A stretch of DNA of 64,000 bases from an uncultured Acidobacteriota bacterium (lineage in GTDB: Bacteria; Acidobacteriota; JAQAZP01), in contig CAWIIB010000009.1 in NCBI GenBank assembly GCA_963836075.1, positions 1,120,001-1,184,000 of the forward strand, given 5' to 3'. Both the position numbers and the translations under genes were made by a program. A model generated the notes under the pieces. That model made no database searches. It was not told the origin of the DNA and saw only the letters and a program-made list of their open reading frames with translations. Positions 18,003 to 52,625 of the stretch are shown in pieces; position 1 is the stretch's first letter; every line of letters begins with the position of its first letter.

Positions 18003-19901
18003 TTATTCTGTTGCCTGCTTGTCGAGGATCGCCTCGATCTGGTCCATCACGTCGTTCATCACCTTCACCGTGGCCCGGTAGGGTTCGGGGGAAGTGAGGT
18101 CCACGCCGGCCTTCTTCACCAGCTCCACCGAGTAGTCGCTGCTGCCGGCCTTGAGGAAGTCCATGTAGCGTTCCAGTGCGCCTTCCTCGCCGTCGAGGAT
18201 CTTCTGCGACAGCGCGGTGGAGGCGACGAAGCTGGTGGAATACTGGTAGACGTAGAAGTTGTAGTAGAAGTGGCGGATGTAGGCCCACTCCACGTTGTAG
18301 AGCGGGTTGATGGTCATCACGCCCTCGTCGTGGCCGTGGTAGCGGCGCAGCAGCTCGCCGTAGACCTCGTTCAGCTTTTCGCCGGTGAGCGCCTCGCCCT
18401 TTTCCACCAGCTCGTGGATCTTCAGCTCGAACTCGGCGAACATGGTCTGGCGGTAGAATGTGCCGCGCAGGTTGTCGAGGTAGCTGCCCAGCAGGAAGAG
18501 CTTCTCATCGTCGCTTTTTGCCCGTTCAAGCAGGTAGGGGTTGAGCAGTGCTTCGTTGAGAGTGGAGGCGATCTCGGCGACAAAGATGGTGTAGTCGGCC
18601 GTGGGGTAGGGCTGGGTCTTGTTCGAGAAGTAGGTCTGCATGGCGTGGCCGCACTCGTGGGCCAGGGTGGAGAGGCTGTTGTAGTCGTCGACGTAGTTCA
18701 GCAGCATGTAGGGGTGGACGTCGTAGGCCGAGCCGCTCATGTAGGCCCCGCTCCGCTTGCCCTGGCTGGGATAGACGTCGATCCAGCGCGACTCGATCCC
18801 GTTGGCCAGCCCGTTGACATACTCCTCGCCCAGCGGGGCCAGCGACTCGAGCATCAGCTTCACGCCCTCGTCGTAGGGAAAGTCCATCTCCACTTCCTTC
18901 ACGATGGGCGGGTAGATGTCGTAGTAGTGGAGCTCGTCCAGGCCGAGCATCCGCTGGCGCAGCTTGAGGTAGCGGTGCAGCGTGGGCAGGCTGGCGTTCA
19001 CCTCGCGGATCAGGGTGTGGTAGACGTCGGTGGGGATGTTGCCCGCATCGAGAGCCGACTCCAGTGACGAGTTGTAGTTGCGCACCTTGGTGTAGAAGAG
19101 ATCGCGCTTTACCCCGGAGTAGAGGCTGGTGCCCAGGGTGCGGCCGAACTCGTTGAACTTGGTCCAGAAGGCGTCGAAGACGGCGATGCGGTCCTCGCGC
19201 ACCGGCGATGAGCGGTGTTTGGTGTAGGCCGACTGGTCCATCAGGACCTTCTCTCCGCTGGAGAGCTCCACCGTGGGGTAGGGCATGTCGGCGCCGACAA
19301 AGATGCCGTAGAGGTCGAAGGGGGCGCCGGAGACCAGCGACGCGGTGGCGATCACTTCCTCCTCCCCCTCGCCCAGCGTGTGCTCGCGCCGCCGCTGGAG
19401 ATCGTCGAGGAGCATCCGGTAGTCCAGAAGCGCAGGTTCCTCGGCGAGGAAGCCGTCAATTACCTTGGGGTCGAGGGCCAGGATCTCGGGATCGACAAAG
19501 GAGACCGCGGCGCCGAGGGTGGTGCCCACCTGGCCGATCTCCTGCTTCATGGCCAGCGGTCCGGCCTCGCGGGTGTCGGTGTCGGAGTTCAGGCTGGCAT
19601 AGGTGCGGATGCGGGCATACTCTTTGGAGATGTCGGAGATCAGGGCGAAGGCTTCGGCCATCACGGCCGCGGACTCGCCCAGTCGGCCCCGGTACTGGTC
19701 GATGGCCGGGATCCGTCCCTCGAGAGCCTTTTTGGCCTTGACCCATGCTTCATCGTTGGGGTAGAGGTCGTCCAGGTTCCAGGCGTATTTTTCGTCGTTC
19801 ATTGCTGCCTCGTCGGAAGCCGTCGCGGGAACCGACGGTGCGGGGAGGAAGGTGAGCAGAAGTGCCGCCAGTATCAGCGGTGTGGCGAATCGGGTGTTCA
19901 T
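18003..19901 (-). CDS. pepF: Oligoendopeptidase F (M3B) with signal peptide
   Basis: WNLDDLY, GKRSGAY, HPYMLLNY, HECGH, EIAST, YVYQY. Confidence 0.92.
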   Translation of the reverse strand: MNTRFATPLILAALLLTFLPAPSVPATASDEAAMNDEKYAWNLDDLYPNDEAWVKAKKALEGRIPAIDQYRGRLGESAAVMAEAFALISDISKEYARIRTYASLNSDTDTREAGPLAMKQEIGQVGTTLGAAVSFVDPEILALDPKVIDGFLAEEPALLDYRMLLDDLQRRREHTLGEGEEEVIATASLVSGAPFDLYGIFVGADMPYPTVELSSGEKVLMDQSAYTKHRSSPVREDRIAVFDAFWTKFNEFGRTLGTSLYSGVKRDLFYTKVRNYNSSLESALDAGNIPTDVYHTLIREVNASLPTLHRYLKLRQRMLGLDELHYYDIYPPIVKEVEMDFPYDEGVKLMLESLAPLGEEYVNGLANGIESRWIDVYPSQGKRSGAYMSGSAYDVHPYMLLNYVDDYNSLSTLAHECGHAMQTYFSNKTQPYPTADYTIFVAEIASTLNEALLNPYLLERAKSDDEKLFLLGSYLDNLRGTFYRQTMFAEFELKIHELVEKGEALTGEKLNEVYGELLRRYHGHDEGVMTINPLYNVEWAYIRHFYYNFYVYQYSTSFVASTALSQKILDGEEGALERYMDFLKAGSSDYSVELVKKAGVDLTSPEPYRATVKVMNDVMDQIEAILDKQATE

Positions 19902-20173
19902 GACGTTTTCACCTTTCGCGGAAGCGATCCCGGTGCGCGGCCGGCGTGCCCCGGCGGGGACCAGATGTTGCAAAACGAAATATCAACTTGATTTTCAGTG
20001 CCTTAGAGGCATTTGAGAAGCACATTTATACCTGCTGGATCGGGGGTTGTCAAGAAATCGCTTGCCTTGAAAGGCCCGGGAACGTACTCATGTGATATAG
20101 TAGGAATTGTTTGTTTTTGTCGAAAACGCGGTTCAAACGCGGGTAATGATCAAGGATTTACGCGGAGCGCACC

Positions 20174-21142
20174 ATGAAGCCCACCCGAAAAACTGCACTG
20201 CTGACCCTCATCTTCCTTTTTGTCGCGGGGATGACCCCGCTGTTCGCCGGATCGGTGACCATCGGCGCCGATGGCGAGCTGAGCCTCAACCGCCCATTCT
20301 GCGGCACCTGAAGCAGCAACATCAGATACCAGGTACTGGTATTGGCAAGTGAGATTCCCGAGCGCTGCGAGCTGAAGGCCATCGAGTTCTACGCCAACCA
20401 CGCGTCCTTCTACCACGGGCAGTTCGAACAGATCGAGTTCCTCGCCGGCCACATCGCCGAGGACCGGCTGAGCACCACCTTTGCCGACAACTATGTCTAT
20501 GAAACGCCTACCACGGTCTACTACCGCGGAGTCGAAGACGTAAAATTCGAGGTGGGTTTGTGGAACGAGTTCATCTTTGACACGCCCTTCATCTACAACG
20601 GCGAAGACCACCTGCTGCTGGAGTTCCGCTACAACGGCAGCAGCAGCCAGAGCATCTACAACCTCGGCTGGTTTTACGGGGGCAGCGACCGGGTGATCGA
20701 CGGCTTCCTCGGGCAGGATACCGGCTGGGCCCGGGAGATGATGCCCTCCTTCCGCCTGATCTTCAGCCCGCTGATCACCATCTCGGCCGAGATGAGCTGT
20801 TCGCCCTCGGCGGGGACGCTCCCCTTCTCCAGCGCCATGACGGTGAACCTGGTCAACAACGTCGACGACCAGGCCCGCACCGCGGCCGGCCACATCGATC
20901 TGGCCCTGGGCAACGGCGTACTGTATGGCAACTGGCGCAGCGGCTGGGTGGACCTGGCCCCCGGCGGCTGGAACCACAAGTCGTGGAACCAGCAGATCCC
21001 GGCCCATTTCTCGTTCTTCGGCAGCAGCGAGTTCCGCCTGGTGGTGCAGGACGTGACCCCGGCGCCGTACAACCAGCCGCCCTATCTCGCCTCGGGCGAC
21101 GTCAGCTCACGCGTCTGCACCTTCACCGGCGCCGTGCCGTAA
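20174..21142 (+). CDS. Putative secreted selenoprotein (CxxU, U at codon 46) with conserved C-terminal domain
   Basis: GGAG RBS; ATG 20174 is in frame with ORF 20342..21142; signal peptide; single in-frame TGA at 20309-20311 in PFCGT*SSNIRYQ; SECIS-like hairpin follows. Confidence 0.72.
20312..20345 (+). promoter_or_regulatory. Candidate bacterial SECIS element
   Basis: Perfect stem ATACCAG/CTGGTAT (20326-20342) with G-first loop GTA, 21 nt after the UGA. Confidence 0.6.
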
Positions 21143-21149
21143 TGACACA

Positions 21150-21297
21150 GGGGACGTACATAAAAAATATAACTAGTCCCTAAGCCGTTCTAATAATATG
21201 AGATATTGATTTCATTGCGGCGCCGTGCCGATCGGCGTCCGTAACTCTTTTCTATTTAGCAGGTTGGGCGCTAGTTATACTTTTTATGTACGTCCCC
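21150..21297. repeat. GGGACGTACATA-family inverted-repeat element, copy 2
   Basis: 27-bp terminal IR ggggacgtacataaaaaatataactag / ctagttatactttttatgtacgtcccc (1 mismatch) between convergent genes. Confidence 0.75.
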
Positions 21298-21307
21298 AAG
21301 CCCGAGC

Positions 21308-23014
21308 CTACTCTGTTTTTCCCACCTGGATCGAGTGGGTTACGTAGGAGACCTCCGCGGCCAGCTCGTCCTTGACCCCCACCGCCATTCTCTGGAAGCC
21401 GGAAGCCATCACCAGGTTCAGCTCGTAGGTGTAGACCTGCAGGCGGGCCTTTTCCCAGTCCGCTTCGGGGATGGTGATCGGCAACACGTGCTCCTGTACC
21501 GGCGAAAGATCCCCGTTGTCCTTGCGGGCGGCCACGGTGATCAGCACCCGGCCCTGGTGGCTGCCCCCGCGGTTGAGCAGGGTCAGTTTGCCCAGGGGGA
21601 TGCGCACCTCCACCGGGACGATGTAGTTGCCGTCCTCGTAGGGCTGGTGCTGGCCGGTCCGCAGCTCGAAGCCGAGGGCATTGTTCTGGTAGCCCAGGAC
21701 CAGCGCGGAGATGGTGCCTTCCTCCATCTGCCGTGCCGGAGTCTGATCGCGGTAGCCCTTGCGCTGGCGGACGGTGAGCCCCGGACCCTTGACCTTGACC
21801 TTGGTACGGTGGAACTGGCCGTCGCCGGCGTGGCCGGGCCGGAAGCCGAGGGAGTAGTAGCTCTTGAAGTCCGAGGCAATCCGCTCCAGGCCGCCGGCGA
21901 TGTTGTTGGTCCCGGTGATCGCCACCCCGCCGGTGTTCCCGGAGATGAACTTCAGCGAGGCCTGCATGTTGGTCGCCGTCACCGCATCGATGGTCCCGGA
22001 AAAGTCGCGCGACCGGTCCTGGGCATCGGACCCGCTCACGTTGCGCTGCCCCACGGCGTCGATGGTGTAGAGGGTCACCTGGTTGGCGTTGGCCAGCATG
22101 GTGACCTCCTCGAAGCGGCGGGTGGCGTCGAAACTCATGGAGCGCAGCATCGCGCCGCTATTGGGGGATTTCTCTTCGATGGCGTAGAACATCTCCTCGG
22201 CCGCCTTCATCGGCAGGCCGTCACTGACGTAGAGCAGCGCCTTGCGCCCCTCGATGCCGGAGAGGAAACCGAGCATCTCGTTCAGGGCGTCGAGGGAGAA
22301 CCGCAGTTCGTTGTTAATCGACTCGGCGAAGTTTTCGACCCGCGGCAGCATCCGGATACCGGTCCCGGACTCGGCGATCTCGTTCAGCAGGTCGCGGCGG
22401 TCCTGCTCGTAGAAATTTCGGTCCCCGCCCTTCTCGTCGATCTGATCGATGGTGTATATGATCCGCGCGTGGTCGGTGGTGAAGGTGTTGTCAATGATCA
22501 GCGACCGGTCGTAGGTCACCATCATCACCCGGTCGCCCTCTTCCAGCTCCACGCGGAGGAAGTTCTTCAGCGCGCTGAGCACCTTCTTGCGGTTGAAGGG
22601 GTGAATGTTGAAGTTGTCGATATAGATCACCAGGTGCAGCGGCTGCTTTTTCGGCAGCGGCGGCGCCACCTCCGGCTCCACTGCCGGCGCTTCCCCGCCC
22701 AGGGTCACCTCCCCGCCGTCCACGGCGTAGAAGTTGCTGACCGTGGTCTCCTGCCCGTCCACCACCAGCTCGAAATCGTCGCGGGTCAGACCCTTCACCG
22801 CATTGCCGTCCTTGTCGGTGACAAAGACCTCCAGCTCGATCACCCGCACCTCGATGATCTCGGTGAACAGCGGGTCGGAGAGGGCGGTCTGGCCGGTGGT
22901 CGGCGGTGCCTGCTCCTCGCCGCCAACCGGGGTCATCTCTGGGAGTTCCTGGGCCGTTGCCGGCAGGGCAGTGGCCATGAGCAGGACGAAAAGGACGGTG
23001 AGCAGTGGTTTCAT
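21308..23014 (-). CDS. Acidobacterial VWFA-related secreted protein
   Basis: Signal peptide, VFVTDKDG..VKGLTRDDF, GRKALLYVSDG, TGG, YYSLGF, VRQRKGY. Confidence 0.85.
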   Translation of the reverse strand: MKPLLTVLFVLLMATALPATAQELPEMTPVGGEEQAPPTTGQTALSDPLFTEIIEVRVIELEVFVTDKDGNAVKGLTRDDFELVVDGQETTVSNFYAVDGGEVTLGGEAPAVEPEVAPPLPKKQPLHLVIYIDNFNIHPFNRKKVLSALKNFLRVELEEGDRVMMVTYDRSLIIDNTFTTDHARIIYTIDQIDEKGGDRNFYEQDRRDLLNEIAESGTGIRMLPRVENFAESINNELRFSLDALNEMLGFLSGIEGRKALLYVSDGLPMKAAEEMFYAIEEKSPNSGAMLRSMSFDATRRFEEVTMLANANQVTLYTIDAVGQRNVSGSDAQDRSRDFSGTIDAVTATNMQASLKFISGNTGGVAITGTNNIAGGLERIASDFKSYYSLGFRPGHAGDGQFHRTKVKVKGPGLTVRQRKGYRDQTPARQMEEGTISALVLGYQNNALGFELRTGQHQPYEDGNYIVPVEVRIPLGKLTLLNRGGSHQGRVLITVAARKDNGDLSPVQEHVLPITIPEADWEKARLQVYTYELNLVMASGFQRMAVGVKDELAAEVSYVTHSIQVGKTE

Positions 23015-28679: not shown

Positions 28680-31224
28680 TCATGGCGCCACCCCCGTGAC
28701 CGTGCAGCCGTCGCTGTCCATATCCCCCTCGGGCGGATAGGGCGGCCGGTTGTAGGGCGCCGGGGTCACGTCTTCAGCCATGAAAAAGAACTCGGTGTCG
28801 CCCAGCAGGTCGGCCAGGGCCGGGATGCCCTGCCACCAGTCGGCGGTCAGGCTCGCCCCGCCCAGCAGGTTCACTGACCCGCGGCGCCAGTTCTGGTAGT
28901 AGGGCCCGTCGGCAAGGTCGACATCGAGCTGGTAGGCGAAGCGCCGGGCCTGCTCGGTGTAGGTGTTGGTCAGGGTCAGCACGAACCGCGAGCTGAAGGG
29001 CAGGGTGCCCGAGGAGGGGACGCAGGTCATGGAGGTGGAAAGGGTTTTGGTGGCGGTGATCGTGTTGTTGAGGAGGATCGTGACGGCGTCCTCGGCGTAG
29101 TTGCAGACCGCCGCGTCCCGGTCGCCGTCGCCGTCGAAGTCGGCCAGGACCGGGGAGAATGGATCGCACCAGGTGCCGAACTGAATCGGCTCCTCGAATG
29201 TTCCGTCGCCATTCCCTGCCAGAACACCCAGGGTATCCGGCCCGCGATTGGCGACCACCAGGTCGTCCAGGCCGTCGCCGTCCACGTCGCCCGCGGCAAG
29301 GTCGTATGGACGCACACCCGCGTAGTGGGTCACCGGGGCCTGGAAGGAGCCGTCGCCGTTGCCCTTCAGCAGTTCGATGGCGCCGCTATCTGTCATGGCC
29401 ACCGCCAGGTCGGCGATCCCGTCGCCGTCGAAGTCGTGGGCCACGATCCCCGCCGGGTCCACCCCCGCCAGGTCGTAGCGTGCCGGCTCGTCAAACGTGC
29501 CGTCGCCGTTGCCGAGGAACACCGAAACACGGTCCGGATAGGAGTAGCTGATGGTCTGGGTCACCGCCAGGTCGAGCTGCCCGTCGCCGTCGAAGTCGCC
29601 GCCGGCCAATCCATGGGGCGTATAGCTGAATTCCTGCAGCAGCGGGGCCTGAAACGTGCCGTCGCCGTTGCCCGCCAGGACCGCGATGGCGGTGGGGTCG
29701 TCGTTGACCGTCACCACGTCGAGGATGTCGTCGCCGGTGGCGTCGTCGAGCACAATCTCGATCGGCTGGTCGCCGGTGTCATACATCACGCGCTCCTGAA
29801 AAGTGCCGTCACCGTTGTTGATGAACACCGATACGGTGTCGATCATGTGGTTCAGCACGGCGAGGTCCGGGTCGCCGTCCTCGTCGAGGTCGGCGCCGGC
29901 GGAGTCCACAGGAAAATTGCCGCAGAAGTAGTTCAGCGGGGCATGAAAGGTGCCGTCCCCGTGGCCGTGGAGCACGGAGAGGAAGCCTCCGCTCCCCCCG
30001 GCGGCCAGGTCGGGGACGCCGTCCCCGTTGAGGTCGGCGGCGATCAGTGTGATCGCTTCGTCGGTGGCGGGTGTCGTGGGCGGGATGTCAAACGTGCCGT
30101 CGCCGCGGCCCAGCACCATGCCCACGTGGTTCGCAGATCCCCTGGTAAAAACCAGGTCGGGGATGCCGTCGTTGTTCATCCCGGCTGCCAGCGCCCGGCG
30201 GATGTAACCGGACGGCAGTTGTGGGCCCTCTTCGAAGGTGCCGTCCCCGTTGCCGTAGAGCAGAGAGACGGCCGGGATTGTGGTGTCGTAGGCGTTTGAG
30301 TAGCTCACCACCAGGTCGAGGATCCCGTTATCGTCCAGGTGACCGGGATCGATGAAAAACGGGCGGCTGGCGAGCGGGATATCGCCGGGCGGTTGGAGCG
30401 TGCCGTCGCCGCTGTTGAGATACAGTCTGATCCCGCTGAAGAGGTTGTCGATGACCAGCAGGTCCGGGTGCCCGTCCCCGTTCACGTCGCCCGTGGCCGC
30501 ATCCAGGGTATCGCTCTCGCCGTAGGTTACGGGAGGGCCGAAGGTGCCGTCGCCGAGGCCGGGGAGCACCACCACGGCGGGGTCGTGCCAGCCGTCGTTG
30601 GTGGTCACCAGGTCGAGGTGGCCGTCGCCGTCCAGGTCGGCGGCGACGATGTCGGTGGCCGTCGCGCCGGTGGGGTAGTGCACCGGGTAGTCGAAGGTCC
30701 CGTCACCGCGGCCCAGCGCTACGGAGATGTTGTTGTCGTCACCGCTGTTGCCGGTGGCCACGTCGAGGTGCCCGTCGTTGTCCAGGTCGGCGAGCACGAT
30801 GCCGTGCGGTTCGAAGCCGCCCAGATGGATCACCGCCGGCTGGAAGGTGCCGTCCCCGTTGCCCAGCAGGCTGGTGAAGCGGCCGGCCTCGCTGTTCCCC
30901 GCCACCAGGTCGAGGTGGCCGTCCTCGTTGATGTCGCCGGCCGCCAGGTCCCGCGGGCCCTCCTCGGTGAAGTAGTCGGTCCGGCTGTGCAGGGTGCCGT
31001 CCCCGGCGCCGAGCATCACCGTGACCCTGTCCGCTTCAAGCCGGGCCACGGCCACGTCGCGGATGCCGTCGCCGTCGAAGTCTTCAGCCACCAGGCCCAG
31101 GGGCGTTCCGGTGAGCCAGGTACTCCTCCGGCGCGTCGAAGAGCGAATCCGGGCCGGCAGCCGCCGGGACGGCAGCCATGATGCAGGCGATGAGCATTGT
31201 GATGACGATCGGTCGGGCGTTCAT
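28680..31224 (-). CDS. Secreted FG-GAP/VCBS repeat protein with PYNQPPY-type C-terminal domain (frameshift ~31120)
   Basis: Signal peptide from ATG 31224 (ATGA-coupled); ~13 DxDGDG/GxGDGTF repeats; removing one base joins it to ORF 28680..31091. Confidence 0.82.
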
Positions 31225-33762
31225 GGTGTCACCCCCGTGATGGTGCAGCCATCGGAGTCGAAGCTCCCTGCCGGCGGGTAGGGCGGCTGGTTGAACGGCG
31301 CCGGCGTCACGTCCATCGAGCGGAGGGAGAACCGCGTGTCGCCGGACAGCGAATCCAGCTCCGGGATGGTCTGCCACCAGCCGACGATTGCGGTCTCTCC
31401 CGGCGCGATGTTGGCCCACCCCCGCCGCCAGTTGACGTAGCGCGGGCCGTGGGCCAGGGTGACATCGATCTGCGACTGGATGCGCCGGGCCTGGCCGGGA
31501 AAGGCATTGGTCACGTTCGCCGCGAGGAAGGTGGAGAAGGGCAGCGTGCCCGATGCGGGCTGGCAGGAGAGCTCCACGTCAACGGTGCTGGCCAGGGGGC
31601 GCCTGACCAGGGTGAAGATGGATTTGTTTCGGTTCTCGTAGCTGTGGCGATTGAAGGTGACCAGGTCCGGGTGGCCGTCCCCGTTCAGATCACCGCGGAA
31701 CAGGACGTAGGGGCCCTCCCTGGTGCCGTAGGTTTCCGGTGTCCCGAAGGTGCCGTCACCGTTGCCGTAAAGGACCCGGACGTGGTCGTTGGCCTCGTCG
31801 GTAACGGCGATGTCGAGGTTTCCGTCGCCGTCCAGGTCGGCGGTGACGATGCCCGAGGGCATCCCGCCCTCGTCGATGCTCGCCGCGGCGTCGAAGGTGC
31901 CGTCACCGTTGCCGGCGAGGAGCACGACAACGCCGCCGTCCCGGCAGGCCACGGCCAGGTCCTCGTGGCCGTCACCGTCCAGGTCGTCGACCGCGATTCC
32001 CGCCGGGCCGGCGCCCACCGTGTAGTCGGTCCAGACCCAGAACGTGCCGTCCCCAGACCCGGGAAAGATCGAGATCGAGCTCTCGCCGGTGTTGGCCACC
32101 GCCAGGTCGGTGTGGCCGTCGCCGTCGAAGTCGCGGCTGATCACCGTTTCCGGCGCGTCGCCGGTGACGTAGTAGATCATCGCTTTCTTGAAAGTGCCGT
32201 CACCGTTGCCCGGAAGCACCGAGATGCTGTCCTTGCCGTCGCTCACCACCACCAGGTCGGGGAAGTCGTCGCTGTTCACCTCGGCCACGGTGAGGGCCCG
32301 GGCGTAGCAGCTGGTGGTGTAGTTCGTCGGTGTCCCGAACGTGCCGTCGCCGTTCCCGGTCAGCACGGACACGGAGCAGCCATAATCGTTCGCGGTGACC
32401 AGGTCGAGGTCCCCGTCCCCGTCCAGGTCGGCGGAGGTGACGAAATTGGCATTGACATTGTCGAGGGGGTAGTCGGTGGGTTCGAGGAACCCGCCGCTGC
32501 CGTCGCCGGGCAGGATGATGACCCGGTCCTCCGACTGGTACACGGTCACCGCGGCATCGGGAATGCCGTCGCCGTCGTAGTCGCCCAGGTCCATATACGT
32601 GCCGTAGGTGACGGCGAACTCCGAGTCGGAACCGAGCAGCGTGCCGTCTCCTCTTCCTTTGAGAACCGAAACCCCGTACTCGCCGTCGTTGAGCAGTACC
32701 AGGTCCGGGCGGCCGTCGCCGTCGATGTCGCCGGCGAGCACCTCGTCGCTCAAACCCTGCGGGTAGACGGCGCCCCGGTCCTCGAAGCCGCCCAGGCCGT
32801 CGTTGGTAAGCATGGTGACCGTCGGCCCTTCATGGGAATTACTCCAGTACAGGTACCGCCAGGTCGGGCCGGCCGTCCCGGTCGAAATCGGCGACCGCCA
32901 GGGATCCGTCGGGCGGGTGCTCCCCGAGCAGGAAGAAGGTGCCGTCACCGCTCCCCTGGTAGATCCGGGAATCCGAGTAGCCGAAGCTCACGGCCATGTC
33001 CGGGACCTGGTCGCCATTGAAGTCCTCGATGATCAGCGAGAGCAGGGCGTTGCTGGTGGCGTACTGGTCTGCCGGCTGGAAGGTCCCGCCGCCGTTGCCC
33101 AGCCGGACCCAGATGGAGTTGTAGTTGGCCATGACCAGGTCCGGGATGCTGTCGCCGTTGAGGTCGGTGAACTCGGCTCGTACCGGATCGTCCCCCGCCG
33201 GAAAGGTCACCACTGGTTGGAAGGTGCCGTCGCCGTTGCCGCGCAAGGCGAGGACGGTGTCACTGGTCCTCTCGGCCAGCAGCAGATCGGGGACGCCGTC
33301 GCCGTCACCATCGCCGATGGTGACGCTCCGTGGGCCGTCACCGGCCGGATAATCCACCGCGGCCTGGAAACTGCCGTCTCCGTTGCCCAGAAACACCGCG
33401 ACGCTGTCGTCATAAAAGTTTGACTTGACCAGGTCGACGTGGCTGTCGCCATCGAGGTCGTCCGCGGCCAGTTCGTCATATGAATAGTATTGCGCCACCG
33501 GCATCATCACCGCCGGCGCGAAGCCGCCGTCGCCTTCGCCGAGCATGATGGCGATGAAGCTCTCCCCGTCCTCGCGGTTCAGGGCGGCCAGGTCGAGGTG
33601 CCCGTCCCCGTTGAAGTCGGCCAGCACGCCTGAGTCTGGATCGAGCGGCTGATAGTGGTCGATGCGGGCGTCGAAGAGCGGTTGGGGAGCGGCTGGTACG
33701 GTAATCAGCAGGGGACTTGAAAGAGCGGCGAAAAGAATCAGGGACCGGTGAAATCGCATCAT
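31221..33762 (-). CDS. Secreted FG-GAP/VCBS repeat protein with PYNQPPY-type C-terminal domain (frameshift ~32852)
   Basis: ORFs 32839..33762 and 31221..32948 are two halves of one repeat protein; tandem paralog of the downstream gene. Confidence 0.82.
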
Positions 33763-47200: not shown

Positions 47201-47762
47201 CTATCTCAATGCTTCGGGTGGTTCAAACGGGGGAACGCCCTTCTATCAGCCGATCAGCGCCTGGGGCACGGTGACCGCCACCGGTCTCAACCCGGGGACC
47301 ACCTACGCCTTCCGGGTGCGTGCCCGCAACGGTGACGGTCTCATCACCGACTGGTCGCCCTGGGGCTACGGTACCACCGGCAGCCTGGCCACCGACACCA
47401 TCCAGGCCACGATCAGCGCGTCCCCCACGTCGGGGGTGGTGCCCTTCAGCACCCAGTTCACCGCCGAGCTGACCAACCTGCTGGCCACCGAGCAGCGCCG
47501 GGTCTACGGCCGGATCGACGTGATCAGCGGCAGCGGGGCCTCATATGGCAACTGGCGCTCCGGGTGGACCAACCTCAGCGGCGGGGAGGTCTATACCGCG
47601 GTCTGGTCCCAGGGCATACCGGCCCTGTCCTCGCTGCTGGGTGACAACCTGTTCACCGTTCATGGCGTCGATGTGACACCGGCTCCATACAACCAGCCGC
47701 CGTACTCACCGTCCGGCGATACGGACAGCGACAGCGTAATCGTAACCGCCATGGCCCCCTGA
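44269..47762 (+). CDS. Secreted S8 subtilase with FN3-like domains and PYNQPPY-type C-terminal domain (frameshifts ~46875, ~47194)
   Basis: Signal peptide; ILDSG, GHGTHV, SAGN, SGTSMSAP; ORFs 44068, 46961 and 47160 join into one protein. Confidence 0.86.
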
Positions 47763-49478: not shown

Positions 49479-52400
49479 ATGCGAAACACACCGACTCCGC
49501 TCCCCGCAATCTTCATCATCATGATTCTGCTCTTCCCCATCCCGGCCCTGGTCCATGCAGGGCCGGTGATGTCATCTCCGCCGGCGGCAGCGATGCCAGC
49601 CCAGAGCGCCGGCCCCATCGTCTCTCCTCAGGCTGAGATGAAAAGGGGTACGGGTGTGCCGGCCTCGCAATACCTGGAATCGCTGAACCCGCGGCGGCGG
49701 GAGAACGCCGTCATCGAAATCGAGCTGTCGGGTGCGGCTCTGGAAGGGCAGGAGGATCTCGCCGTTCAGGCCCGGGACCAGTGGGCTGCCGGTGGTCACC
49801 GTGAGGCCATCGACCTGCTGCGCAAGCTGGAGAGCAGCGGCGCGGCACCCGCCGTGGGAATTACGTGGCGCTCGCCCCTGCCCGGCGGCGGCGACCGGGC
49901 CTCGGACTCCCGGGTGGGCGACCCCCGGGAGGGGGCGTACAGGATGGCCCTCGACTACCACGACAGCGCCGACCGGCTATTCGTGCTGCTGCTCTGGGAC
50001 ACCGGCTGGACGGTGAACATCTCCCACAACGGCGGCGACTCCTGGTCGGAGACCTATTCGTGGTACAGCGCCAACGGCTGTTTCGACGTGGACGGCGTGG
50101 TGGCCGACGACTACTTCTACGTCGGCTACGTGCCCTACGACACCCAGAACTGGGGCAACCTGCGCCGCTTCAACGAGGCCGACGGCAGCCTGGACAGCAC
50201 CTACGGCTACGACACCGTGGTCAGCGTCTCGCCGAACACCATCCGCGACGTGGCCCTGGCCTCCAACGCTTCGGGCTACGACGACGACCTCTACTACGTG
50301 GCCGCGCTCAACATCGGCGAGGTGGAGTTCGTGGTCGGGGATTCGGACACCGGCGACAACTGGCTCAACGTCGAGACCTACATGACCGACTACGTCGGCG
50401 GCCTCGACGCCTGCGTCAACGCCCACCCTTACTATGACAACCCGATGTTCTCCTATATCTCCAGCGAGGGCAAGGTGAAGATCATGAAGTGGGATTCCTA
50501 CTGGTTCGAGCTGGTGGTGGAGCACTACTACTCGGGCTACATCCTCCGTCCGCGAACCGCGGTGTCCGCTTACGAAAACACAACCATCTGCGCCTACGGC
50601 CACGCTTTCGACAACGGTTACGGTGTCCGCTACGGAGCGAACCTCGACGACGGCTTCACCTTCCAGCGGGCGGCGCTCTCCGAACCGGCGGTGGGGGAGC
50701 ACGACAGCTGGCTGGCCGACGTCAGCGTACGCGACTTCGCCGGCGTGGGTGCGGTTTACCTCAAGGAGACCGGCGGCGGGAGCGCCGACGTCTGGTTCCG
50801 CTGCCTCCCCGGCATCAGCGTGCCGCCGGCGGGCTACGGGGAGTGGGAGGACCCGGTGCGGGTCAACGAGCACGACTCCGACCCCACCGAGCGGCCTGTG
50901 ATCAGCTGGATCCCGCCCACCCCGGTGGGCGACCCCGACGCCTGGGCCTTCGGCATCCTCTACCTCACCGATGACCTGGACGCCGTCCCGTATTTCGACC
51001 GCAAGGACGGCCTGCCGGAGAACGGCGGTGACTGCAGCGACCCGATCGCCTTCACCAGCAGCTCCCTGCCGTTCAGCGACACCAACAGCACCCTGGGCCA
51101 GGGGGACGACTACTTCGACACCTGCATGGGCTCCTACGATGGGGGCCAGGACGTCATCTACAAGCTGACGATGTACAGCGGGCAGTGGGTCAAGGTCACC
51201 CTCGATGCGGCCACCGGCTGGGCCGGGGTGGCCGTCTTCGACGGCTGCCCCGGGGATGCCGGCACCAGCTGCATCGCCCAGGCGACCTCCAGCGCCAACC
51301 CCGACGTGATCGACAAACTGTGGCTCGACGCCGGCACTTACTGGATCATGGTCGACAGCTGGCCGCCGCCGGAAACTTTCAGTTACACCCTCACCGTGGA
51401 GCCGGATCCGCCGGGAAGCGACTGCACCGACCCGATCGCGATCGACCTGCCGGCCCAGCTGCCTTTCCGCGACGCCTATTCCACCTGCGGCCACGGCAAC
51501 GACTATGACGCCACCTGCATGGGCACCTACGACGGCGGCGAGGAGATCATCTTCGAACTCGACGTGGCCGCCAGTATGTGCGTCGACCTGAGCATAGACT
51601 CTTACGACGGCTACACCGGTTTCGCCGTCTTCGAAAGCTGCCCGGCCGACGACCCGGAGTCCTGTATCGCCGTGGCGGGCAGCTCGTCGGACGTAAACGT
51701 CATCGCCGGGCTCCAGCTCGACCCCGGCACCTACTGGGTCATGGTCGACAGCTGGCCCACCCCGACGTGCCACCAGTTCCTGCTCGAGATCCTGGCGTGT
51801 TGCGACGTAGCCTGTCCGCCCGGGGCCACCGACGAAGGCGAGCCCTGCGGCGAGGAGCTGAACGACGGCTGCCTGATCGACGTGCCGGCGTTTCGTCCGG
51901 TGGCCAACGGCGAGACGGTCTGCGGGACGCTCACCGCCAGCGACGGGTACTACGGCACCGACTGGCTGCAGGTGGAGCTCGACGAAACGGCCTCGGTGAC
52001 CCTCGACCTGGAGAGCGAATGGCCGGTGATCGTCGGGCTGGCTGAACTCGAACCGCCCGGGTCGGGCGACTGCGCCGACTGGACCGGCTACGTCGACCCA
52101 TGGGACGTCGTGTGGCCCTGCTCGCCGGAAAGCATGACCTTCGACGCCCTGTCCGCGGGTACCCACTGGTTGCTGGTCTACCCGTATTTCACCCACGGCA
52201 ACGAGTGCGGTTTCCGCAACACTTACGCCGCCACCGTCTCCTGGCCCACGTCGGCACCGACGGTGGACGCGTCGTTCACCTGCGCCCCGGACAGCGGCAT
52301 CGTGCCGTTCCAGACCCTGATGACGGTGGCGCTGGACAACCTCTACCCGCTGCAGATCCGGCGGGTGGCTGGCCGCATCGACATCGAGCTGGCCAACGGC

Positions 52401-52625
52401 AGCAGCTACCCCAACTGGCGGGCGGGCTACACCAACATCCAGCCGGGTGAGACGTTCACCACCAGCTGGGTGCAGAACATCCCGGCGCTGGGCAGCGTGG
52501 TCGGGAACAACACCTTCGGCCTGCTTGCCGAAGACGTCACCCCGCCGCCGTACAACCAGCCGCCGTACGCGCCTTCGGGCGACACGGCCACCGATGTCTG
52601 CACGGTGACGGCTGTTGCTCCCTGA
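49479..52625 (+). CDS. Large secreted protein: BNR/propeller-like region, Cys-rich PPC-like repeats, PYNQPPY-type C-terminal domain
   Basis: AAGGAG RBS, signal peptide, SHNGGDSW Asp-box, two clear DCxDPI...LDxGTYWxMVDSWP repeats. Confidence 0.82.
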   Translation: MRNTPTPLPAIFIIMILLFPIPALVHAGPVMSSPPAAAMPAQSAGPIVSPQAEMKRGTGVPASQYLESLNPRRRENAVIEIELSGAALEGQEDLAVQARDQWAAGGHREAIDLLRKLESSGAAPAVGITWRSPLPGGGDRASDSRVGDPREGAYRMALDYHDSADRLFVLLLWDTGWTVNISHNGGDSWSETYSWYSANGCFDVDGVVADDYFYVGYVPYDTQNWGNLRRFNEADGSLDSTYGYDTVVSVSPNTIRDVALASNASGYDDDLYYVAALNIGEVEFVVGDSDTGDNWLNVETYMTDYVGGLDACVNAHPYYDNPMFSYISSEGKVKIMKWDSYWFELVVEHYYSGYILRPRTAVSAYENTTICAYGHAFDNGYGVRYGANLDDGFTFQRAALSEPAVGEHDSWLADVSVRDFAGVGAVYLKETGGGSADVWFRCLPGISVPPAGYGEWEDPVRVNEHDSDPTERPVISWIPPTPVGDPDAWAFGILYLTDDLDAVPYFDRKDGLPENGGDCSDPIAFTSSSLPFSDTNSTLGQGDDYFDTCMGSYDGGQDVIYKLTMYSGQWVKVTLDAATGWAGVAVFDGCPGDAGTSCIAQATSSANPDVIDKLWLDAGTYWIMVDSWPPPETFSYTLTVEPDPPGSDCTDPIAIDLPAQLPFRDAYSTCGHGNDYDATCMGTYDGGEEIIFELDVAASMCVDLSIDSYDGYTGFAVFESCPADDPESCIAVAGSSSDVNVIAGLQLDPGTYWVMVDSWPTPTCHQFLLEILACCDVACPPGATDEGEPCGEELNDGCLIDVPAFRPVANGETVCGTLTASDGYYGTDWLQVELDETASVTLDLESEWPVIVGLAELEPPGSGDCADWTGYVDPWDVVWPCSPESMTFDALSAGTHWLLVYPYFTHGNECGFRNTYAATVSWPTSAPTVDASFTCAPDSGIVPFQTLMTVALDNLYPLQIRRVAGRIDIELANGSSYPNWRAGYTNIQPGETFTTSWVQNIPALGSVVGNNTFGLLAEDVTPPPYNQPPYAPSGDTATDVCTVTAVAP

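Follow-up and report, generated by a model that had tools for sequence, protein, structure and literature searches.

A probable exported selenoprotein of an uncatalogued beta-sandwich family encoded in an uncultured Acidobacteriota bacterium

A compilation from 2026 recognizes 119 selenoprotein families in prokaryotes, and by its account most known bacterial selenoproteins have a thioredoxin-like fold and a redox role (PMC13188914). Motifs of the CxxU and CxxC type usually mark redox functions according to the same source. Its model of the bacterial selenocysteine insertion sequence (bSECIS) has an apical loop of 3-9 nt, an upper stem of 4-16 bp and a UGA-to-loop distance of 16-37 nt, with G at the first or second loop position, mostly within N1-G-[G/U]-N-N2, and a minimum free energy (MFE) of -7.5 kcal/mol or lower (PMC13188914). 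The Omp28-related selenoprotein (NF045500) is found in its Table 1 as 'hypothetical protein GOS_C' (PMC13188914). Here we describe a gene with an in-frame TGA at codon 46, located at 20174-21142 (+) of a 64,000-nt stretch from an uncultured Acidobacteriota bacterium (GTDB lineage JAQAZP01; assembly GCA_963836075.1, contig CAWIIB010000009.1, positions 1,120,001 to 1,184,000 of the forward strand). This stretch is referred to as the window, and positions are those of the window unless a contig is named. Judged from its sequence, the locus is highly likely to be a single gene for an exported selenoprotein in which TGA46 is decoded as selenocysteine (Sec). The exported selenoprotein family that it represents is very probably genuine and uncatalogued.

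Conservation of the TGA codon and its reading frame

From its ATG the frame reads MKPTRKTALLTLIFLFVAGMTPLFA followed by GSVTIGADGELSLNRPFCGT, reaches the TGA at codon 46 and continues with SSNIRYQVLVLASEI into an open reading frame (ORF) of 266 amino acids. The signal peptide region combines a basic n-region, a hydrophobic core and LFA before the G, and a helix was predicted for residues 5-18. The G+C content of third codon positions (GC3) is 0.80 in codons 1-45 and 0.90 in codons 47-322 compared with 0.56 in the 135 nt upstream. All five aligned rows keep the ATG and the element GGAGCGCAC does not vary, while divergence sets in farther upstream; one base between GGAGCGCAC and the ATG is altered in one of the related genomes (G026). 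A preliminary description, made from the letters of the window, had traced a ribosome-binding site, an ATG and a signal peptide in frame through NRPF-C-G-T-TGA into the 266-amino-acid ORF, and direct reading verified each of these statements.

To see how far the TGA is conserved we compared four distinct orthologous DNAs. They come from the genome carrying the gene (G000), from two genomes of the same genus (G026 and G007) and from a locus found in a metagenome scan (L130, 69% identity); a second locus from that scan, L129, is identical to G007 in the stretch. When 401 genomes of the phylum were searched at the protein level, full-length matches came only from G000, G026 (89% identity) and G007 (83%). 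Each of these three codes for a 330-codon open frame with exactly one TGA, and they are also the only members of the class in the collection, all from one genus, with the TGA kept in three of three. No other genome among the 401 has the TGA form; four have distant relatives free of the stop and without the Cys pair. The TGA is at the same codon in all four distinct orthologs, down to 69% protein identity, within a CG[T/I]U motif in every case. Substitutions are in frame on both flanks. The 45 codons upstream of the TGA stay in frame, and their signal-peptide part has in-frame substitutions and no insertions or deletions. A stretch of 23 nt, CAGATACCAGGTACTGGTATTGG, is invariant in the DNA alignment.

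Eight database orthologs (71-99% identity) are annotated as proteins of 266-267 amino acids, all beginning with L/M-ASEIPE just after the site. Database proteins ending in NRPFCG[T/I] comprise one of 196 amino acids and two ORFs of 45 amino acids (P0038 and P0040), the latter covering exactly the codons before the TGA.

An assembly or sequencing error at codon 46, or a recently inactivated pseudogene, would explain the stop differently. Errors in the assembly had been flagged in the preliminary description, and at least one other gene with the C-terminal domain described below, at C9:3159885, seems to be without a proper N-terminus, the frame upstream of it being broken by TAG and TGA codons. 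The same TGA is however present in four distinct orthologs of independent assemblies as well as in a further pair of metagenome contigs, the changes in both flanks are in-frame substitutions and the three genomes of the class all keep it. The contigs are record 11 of run X2 (20152-20451) and record 26 of run X4 (20172-20703), which span the site and belong to two further studies; among the differences listed for them none falls between 20231 and 20368. The codon is TGA and not the TGG, TGC or CGA that the preliminary description considered it might prove to be, as the independent assemblies G026, G007 and L130 keep it and the X2 and X4 contigs show no listed difference. The conserved TGA with its in-frame flanks excludes a sequencing error or recent pseudogene for practical purposes, and we give this explanation next to no credence. 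The public runs sharing parts of the stretch, with shares of 0.14-0.46, are mostly metagenomes of marine sediment, salt marsh and estuary.

We then asked which residue homologs have at the position of the TGA. A profile of the four orthologs was searched against 1.84 billion representative proteins and found 406 relatives at E<=1e-3, 75 of them at E<=1e-10. Four full-length proteins have Cys at the position aligned with the TGA: P0042 with PFCGFC and P0060, P0098 and P0121 with PFCGDC, compared with PFCGTU in the gene product. In BLASTP with the read-through N-terminal domain, the alignments with P0042 (3e-23) and P0098 (2e-19) are continuous over the site, where NRPFCGT[U]SSNIRYQ pairs with NKPFCGFCYQNLRYQ and NRPFCGDCNQSLRDQ, respectively. 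The queries had C standing for U, which slightly raised the score. As in the gene product read through the TGA, a signal peptide is followed in the Cys homologs by the beta-sandwich with a PFCGx[C/U]...RYQ motif. They differ in having Cys for Sec and a short FG(A/G)IK... tail for the 123-residue C-terminal domain, at an identity of 26-30%. The source name of P0060 is 'hypothetical protein, Candidatus Fermentibacteraceae bacterium'. As a check, the preliminary description had suggested looking for homologs with TGA or Cys at codon 46. The orthologs do keep TGA, and the four motif-bearing full-length homologs have Cys. Taken together, the conserved TGA, the conserved frame around it and the Cys homologs go far beyond chance.

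The Cys homologs also bear on the possibility that the locus makes two products. UGA46 would then be the true stop of a 45-residue secreted or leader peptide, and a 266-residue protein would start from the TTG at 20342 by coupling or reinitiation, with the hairpin described below regulating that start. A mechanical ORF listing and every public gene call do give these two ORFs with the TTG start, which counts against a single selenoprotein gene; the TTG is inside the hairpin, which could occlude it, and the energy of the hairpin is unexceptional. However, in the Cys homologs signal peptide, PFCGxC motif and domain form one chain that is ungapped across the TGA, and this speaks against two ORFs. 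The 10 codons that separate the TGA from the TTG are conserved at the protein level (SSNIRYQVLVL) and belong to a predicted core strand, residues 49-56. Translation from the TTG would give a protein deprived of its signal peptide and of the first sandwich strands but with a C-terminal domain typical of exported proteins. The preliminary description had already remarked that the 266-amino-acid ORF alone has neither a signal peptide nor a good start, and we saw no GGAG-type ribosome-binding site before the TTG. We regard two products as unlikely.

The hairpin and the selenocysteine machinery

Downstream of the TGA the transcript can form a hairpin with seven Watson-Crick pairs (AUACCAG/CUGGUAU) and one G.U pair. 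The stem starts 13 nt and the loop 21 nt from the UGA. The preliminary description had a perfect 7-bp stem with a G-first loop 21 nt after the UGA; the hairpin and its G-first loop stand, while the stem has 8 bp including the G.U pair and the 21 nt apply to the loop only. The 3-nt loop, 8-bp stem, 21-nt spacing and MFE of -8.0 kcal/mol agree with all four bSECIS criteria as set out in PMC13188914, the energy only narrowly given the limit of -7.5 kcal/mol. The loop GUA starts with G followed by U and, written as (G)GUA(C), fits the N1-G-[G/U]-N-N2 pattern of that source. In being a stem-loop within the coding sequence just 3' of the UGA, with a small loop starting G-U, a spacing of 21 nt and an MFE not above -7.5 kcal/mol, it is like the fdhF-type SECIS of E. 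coli and the consensus of Zhang and Gladyshev, as described in PMC13188914. Compared with these elements the hairpin here is minimal, with an 8-bp stem, a 3-nt loop and no bulged U or lower stem evident. It resembles the elements in the selD genes of the same genome, where the UGA is followed at 20 nt by a GGU triloop on a 9-bp stem. A search of 19900-21400 against Rfam gave three weak matches at chance level, none of them at the hairpin.

The hairpin is identical in nucleotide sequence in the four distinct orthologs. Synonymous changes are also rare around it: codons with an invariant amino acid changed synonymously in 3 of 20 cases in codons 36-58 and in 54 of 103 elsewhere (Fisher p=0.003, from four related sequences). 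At 20279-20308 (codons 36-45) we observed a single synonymous change in LSLNRPFCG across the four orthologs. These frozen sites may reflect a further RNA element or a constraint on the context of the UGA.

Several results weigh against the selenoprotein reading or limit its support. Among 200 shuffles of the 42-nt stretch 44 fold equally well (z-score -0.68), as do 131 of 200 shuffles of the 76-nt stretch. A scan of the genome started from 174,649 TGA triplets, of which 1,363 had open flanks of high GC3, and a hairpin passing a lax filter followed 70 of these comparable contexts (about 5%). The hairpin shows no compensatory change or covariation across the orthologs, and because it is identical in all of them covariation cannot test the structure. 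The suppression of synonymous change includes codons 36-45, upstream of the UGA, which a SECIS does not account for. Coverage of the site was checked in Logan contigs of runs X1-X4 and not in raw reads; low-support differences are not all listed for these contigs, and low-depth variant contigs (records 12 and 27) could differ at sites other than those listed. Finally, in the majority of the wider domain family the loop between PF and RYQ lacks a Cys where this gene has its TGA.

The Sec machinery, whose genes the preliminary description had not found in the window, is present in the genome. In G000 the tRNA-Sec (selC) scored 74.7 bits compared with a cut-off of 47 and was called SeC with anticodon tca by ARAGORN; selA scored 562.8 bits and selB 365.7 bits. 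There are two selD genes with one in-frame TGA each, at C4:17381-18301 (+) and C9:892330-893256 (-), both reading GG-TGA-AAK and followed by near-identical SECIS hairpins. As C4 is a small contig, its copy could be either a genuine paralog or a duplicate from assembly or binning. Both G007 and G026 also encode a tRNA-Sec and a SelB above the cut-offs.

Other genes from the TGA scan look like selenoprotein genes as well. Eight of them, by motifs that we judged by eye, presumably correspond to Sec forms of peroxiredoxin, TlpA or thioredoxin-type proteins. The selenoprotein-like candidates have 7-bp stems with G-containing loops 16-21 nt downstream. Three further genes encode exported proteins with a signal peptide and a TGA in UxxC motifs of the type ELF...W/S-U-P-x-C-P-S-A, and they match NF045500, 'Omp28-related selenoprotein', at E 1e-10 to 1e-15, below the cut-off. 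Their loci are C9:2705605-2706792 (-) (L139), C1:1061860-1062966 (+) (L140) and C9:1999662-2001407 (+) (L141). Two of the three (C9:2706561 and C1:1062004) end in the same C-terminal domain as the gene described here and the third carries FG-GAP repeats. Exported selenoproteins with the C-terminal domain of this lineage are a recurring theme in the genome, and the candidate fits it.

Two more loci came up in this context. At C9:1777770-1779785 (+) (L138) there are a signal peptide, a region of right-handed beta-helix type (Pfam Beta_helix, at 25.1 bits slightly below the cut-off) and the motif YYCPG-TGA-GGGSD, with the TGA at C9:1778325. A 9-bp hairpin comes next, and then about 480 residues that end in the shared C-terminal domain; NCBIfam gave no match. 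From its sequence this is possibly a second uncatalogued exported selenoprotein. A related case at C9:3159885 (-) reads LLCDYG-TGA-FAPQ and, its frame being broken farther upstream, may be frameshifted.

Read-through of the UGA without SelB would account for the single conserved frame as well as Sec does. A near-cognate Trp or Cys would be inserted or the stop would leak, the hairpin being incidental or slowing the ribosome, and the modest stability of the hairpin suits this explanation. The organism has however a full Sec apparatus and many selenoprotein genes, the residue in question pairs with Cys in a CxxC-type motif of the homologs, and the loop, stem and spacing of the hairpin fit both the bSECIS model as given in PMC13188914 and the selD element of the genome. 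We hold SelB-free read-through to be very improbable. The proposal of the preliminary description, an exported Sec protein, is supported by the conserved TGA, the Sec machinery and the Cys homologs. The features of the gene are collected in Table 1.

Table 1. Features of the candidate selenoprotein gene in window coordinates.
Feature	Position	Strand	Details
Whole selenoprotein gene (putative)	20174..21142	+	322 codons, TGA46 read as Sec, stop TAA 21140-21142
Ribosome-binding site GGAG	20164..20167	+	6 nt before ATG 20174; read directly
Signal peptide, codons 1-25 (MKPTRKTALLTLIFLFVAGMTPLFA, then G)	20174..20248	+	read from sequence
C43-G-T-U46 motif	20300..20311	+	codon 43 TGC; Sec codon TGA 20309-20311
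bSECIS-like hairpin	20325..20343	+	8 bp, apical loop GUA 20333-20335
Mature N-terminal domain, residues 26 to ~200	20249..20773	+	predicted all-beta jelly-roll, CGTU loop between strands
Lineage-specific C-terminal domain, residues 200-322, motif DVTPAPYNQPPY	20771..21139	+	paralog matches

The TTG chosen by the gene callers sits in the 3' arm of the hairpin. Scans of 19950-21350 for sigma-70 promoters and intrinsic terminators found nothing. Just 3' of the gene is an AT-rich inverted repeat of 27 nt with one mismatch, its arms at 21150-21176 and 21271-21297 around ~95 nt, and no T-run of the terminator type was found at it. Elsewhere on C9 the arms are found again, paired as palindromes at C9:1103763-1103826 and C9:391606-391691 and singly at C9:2569697 and C9:397982. 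The repeat could represent a small palindromic element present in several copies, or a site bound by a protein.

Domains and relatives of the gene product

We predicted the structure of residues 1-203 with AlphaFold2 from an alignment of 43 rows (pLDDT 92.6, pTM 0.85). In the model the signal helix (residues 5-18) is followed by an all-beta sandwich, and the mature part has one helix of five residues. A short strand (36-38) precedes the CGTU motif and the RYQVLVL strand (49-56) follows it. Compared by VIA with 48,161 representatives of the PDB, the model matched a PHR domain (3gbw; Z 9.6, root-mean-square deviation (rmsd) 3.3 A over 145 residues), the N-terminal domain of an acetylxylan esterase (7tog; Z 9.6, rmsd 3.7 A over 152 residues) and the N-terminal beta-sandwich of a polyvinyl-alcohol esterase (9kqz; Z 9.4). 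Z was 10-11, with poor rmsd, for modules of phage tails or baseplates and for the lectin-like domain of Cwp84, and ~6 for many CBM32 or galactose-binding-like modules. Foldseek against the PDB returned weak matches for the N-terminal domain (best E 2e-4, TM 0.44-0.48). The predicted fold of the domain is a jelly roll of the lectin or carbohydrate-binding module (CBM) type and not thioredoxin. A thioredoxin-fold oxidoreductase was rejected on the strength of the confidently predicted all-beta model, and a protein of the formate-dehydrogenase type was rejected because the domain is beta-rich. The preliminary description had seen a beta-rich domain unlike both, and the model with its PHR- and CBM-like matches bears this out.

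The read-through protein matched nothing in Pfam and NCBIfam at E<=1, and the preliminary description had likewise not recognized the family. Looking for membership in a Pfam CBM or PHR family, we found no Pfam match for the protein nor for 6 of 10 homologs, and the CBM96, PKD and T9SS (type IX secretion system) matches in the remaining scanned homologs lie outside the N-terminal domain. Table 1 of PMC13188914, as far as its 119 prokaryotic families could be compared by model (those with only cd or PTHR ids were not scanned), contains no counterpart. A known selenoprotein family was rejected on these grounds, the missing Pfam and NCBIfam matches and the missing counterpart in that table. Full-text literature searches returned no description of the family, though supplements of primary papers may list unnamed candidates.

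The N-terminal domain is found widely, either as one copy or as 2-8 copies, with ..PF......R[YF]Q.L....E[IL] as the common motif of the family. Among the few homologs scanned it co-occurs with T9SS sorting, PKD or CBM96 domains. One of the relatives found in other genomes of the phylum has a C-terminal tail that by eye we take to be of the PEP-CTERM kind. The Cys pair is found in 4 of 16 full-length single-domain homologs, while the other 12 are without the second Cys. As most family members have no Cys at the site, the Sec/Cys pair is a feature of a subgroup and not a family-wide active site.

Many relatives appear to be cut at the same place. Among the 149 best matches 51 are single-domain homologs (<=460 amino acids), and 30 of the 51 have no signal peptide and begin 2-29 residues past the position that aligns with Sec, for example with MRYQVLVL..., MLVLANEMP... 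or MVLADEFP.... The contigs of those looked up measure 1.5-82 kb, so truncation at contig ends does not generally explain these forms. Maximum-likelihood analysis placed the orthologs in a clade (support 100/100) inside a group dominated by truncated forms, and the four CGxC proteins form with three truncated ones a separate clade (100/98). C-terminal parts were inspected for two truncated homologs: that of P0016 matches a T9SS sorting domain in Pfam, and the tail of P0031 is presumably T9SS-like, as judged by eye. From these sequences we infer that many of the N-truncated homologs are TGA-interrupted genes as well.

The C-terminal domain of about 123 residues (DVTPAPYNQPPY) has at least 150 matches in the genome, and tblastn found it in 218 distinct frames of the 6.2-Mb genome. 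That the domain is shared had been stated in the preliminary description, and residues ~200-322 indeed match these 218 frames. Copies in the window are at 20771-21139, 28683-29051 (-), 31224-31619 (-), 47397-47750 (+) and 52257-52622 (+). The domain is C-terminal in every paralog examined, and by a crude heuristic 143 of the 218 frames start with a signal-peptide-like N-terminus. The gene gains the signal peptide typical of these frames only if the TGA is read through. Neither Pfam nor NCBIfam, including Por_Secre_tail and TIGR04183, matched the domain. It was predicted to be an Ig/FnIII-like sandwich (pLDDT 96.3), with the V. cholerae biofilm matrix protein RbmA as the best Foldseek match (TM 0.74); such a fold fits a sorting domain but is generic. 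In a scan of genome contigs all 79 loci came from two assemblies, those with the two full-length orthologs. By sequence and predicted model the domain appears to be specific to this lineage and to serve the sorting or attachment of a very large set of exported proteins.

Possible role and comparison with known systems

We infer from the sequence that Sec is inserted at UGA46 and that the protein is exported, cleaved and sorted or anchored through its C-terminal domain. Translation would start at the ATG at 20174, and SelB with Sec-tRNA(Sec) would decode UGA46, recruited by the 8-bp hairpin with the GUA loop 13 nt downstream within the coding sequence. The signal peptide (approximately residues 1-25) would direct export via the Sec translocon, with a predicted cleavage near A25/G26. 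The mature protein would consist of a beta-sandwich similar to lectin, CBM and PHR domains, with Cys43-x-x-Sec46 in the first inter-strand loop, followed by the Ig-like C-terminal domain through which it may be displayed or released.

Cys43 and Sec46 may be a redox-active (selenylsulfide) pair or one binding soft metals or metalloids on an extracellular binding module, as suggested by the CxxU motif, the CxxC homologs and what PMC13188914 states about such motifs; we rate this specific role a little short of even. The main alternative is a purely structural selenylsulfide.

Whether the gene is the first recognized member of a widespread and entirely mis-annotated family of extracellular selenoproteins that have a lectin/CBM-like beta-sandwich as scaffold instead of a redox fold, with all 30 truncated homologs interrupted by TGA, is to our mind evenly balanced. 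If it is, exchanges between Sec and Cys have happened repeatedly, the clade with four CGxC proteins and three truncated ones being an example. The CxxU loop would then lend selenol chemistry to binding modules that are secreted or at the cell surface; in sulfidic sediments its targets might be polysulfide or sulfur, soft metals or metalloids, or matrix polymers linked by disulfides. The annotation error would be systematic: the gene and its eight close orthologs are split into ORFs of 45 and 266 residues, and an apparent truncation at this very place is seen in 30 of the 51 relatives with a single domain. A secreted selenoprotein with a lectin fold would broaden the settings of selenium chemistry and suggest extracellular selenol chemistry in bacteria of anoxic sediments. 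A sparsely sampled acidobacterial class, represented by three species genomes, would have a rich exported selenoproteome.

The PHR domains (3gbw and 3no8), the N-terminal domains of the esterases (7tog and 9kqz) and the CBM32 modules share the jelly-roll beta-sandwich fold with the predicted model. Their identity to it is 4-10% and the protein has no Pfam CBM or PHR match; likeness of fold is no proof of a common ligand. To our knowledge, none of the PHR, esterase CBM-like or CBM32 modules is a selenoprotein.

Like the candidate, the Omp28-related selenoprotein (NF045500) is exported with its Sec shortly after the signal peptide. Its motif is UxxC whereas here it is CxxU, its Sec region is one we take to be thioredoxin-like, and it has no sequence similarity to the gene product. 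DUF1573 (PF07610) and the FCYXU-type TonB-dependent receptor (NF049945) consist of other domains, presumably a beta-sandwich or a barrel, and neither model matches the gene product. As listed in PMC13188914, DUF1573, with UGC, and the FCYXU-type receptor, which also has a CxxU motif, are precedents for Sec outside the classical cytoplasmic redox enzymes. Compared with these systems the proposed decoding mechanism is the ordinary bacterial one, and what is new is the family, with a fold and a location unusual for a selenoprotein.

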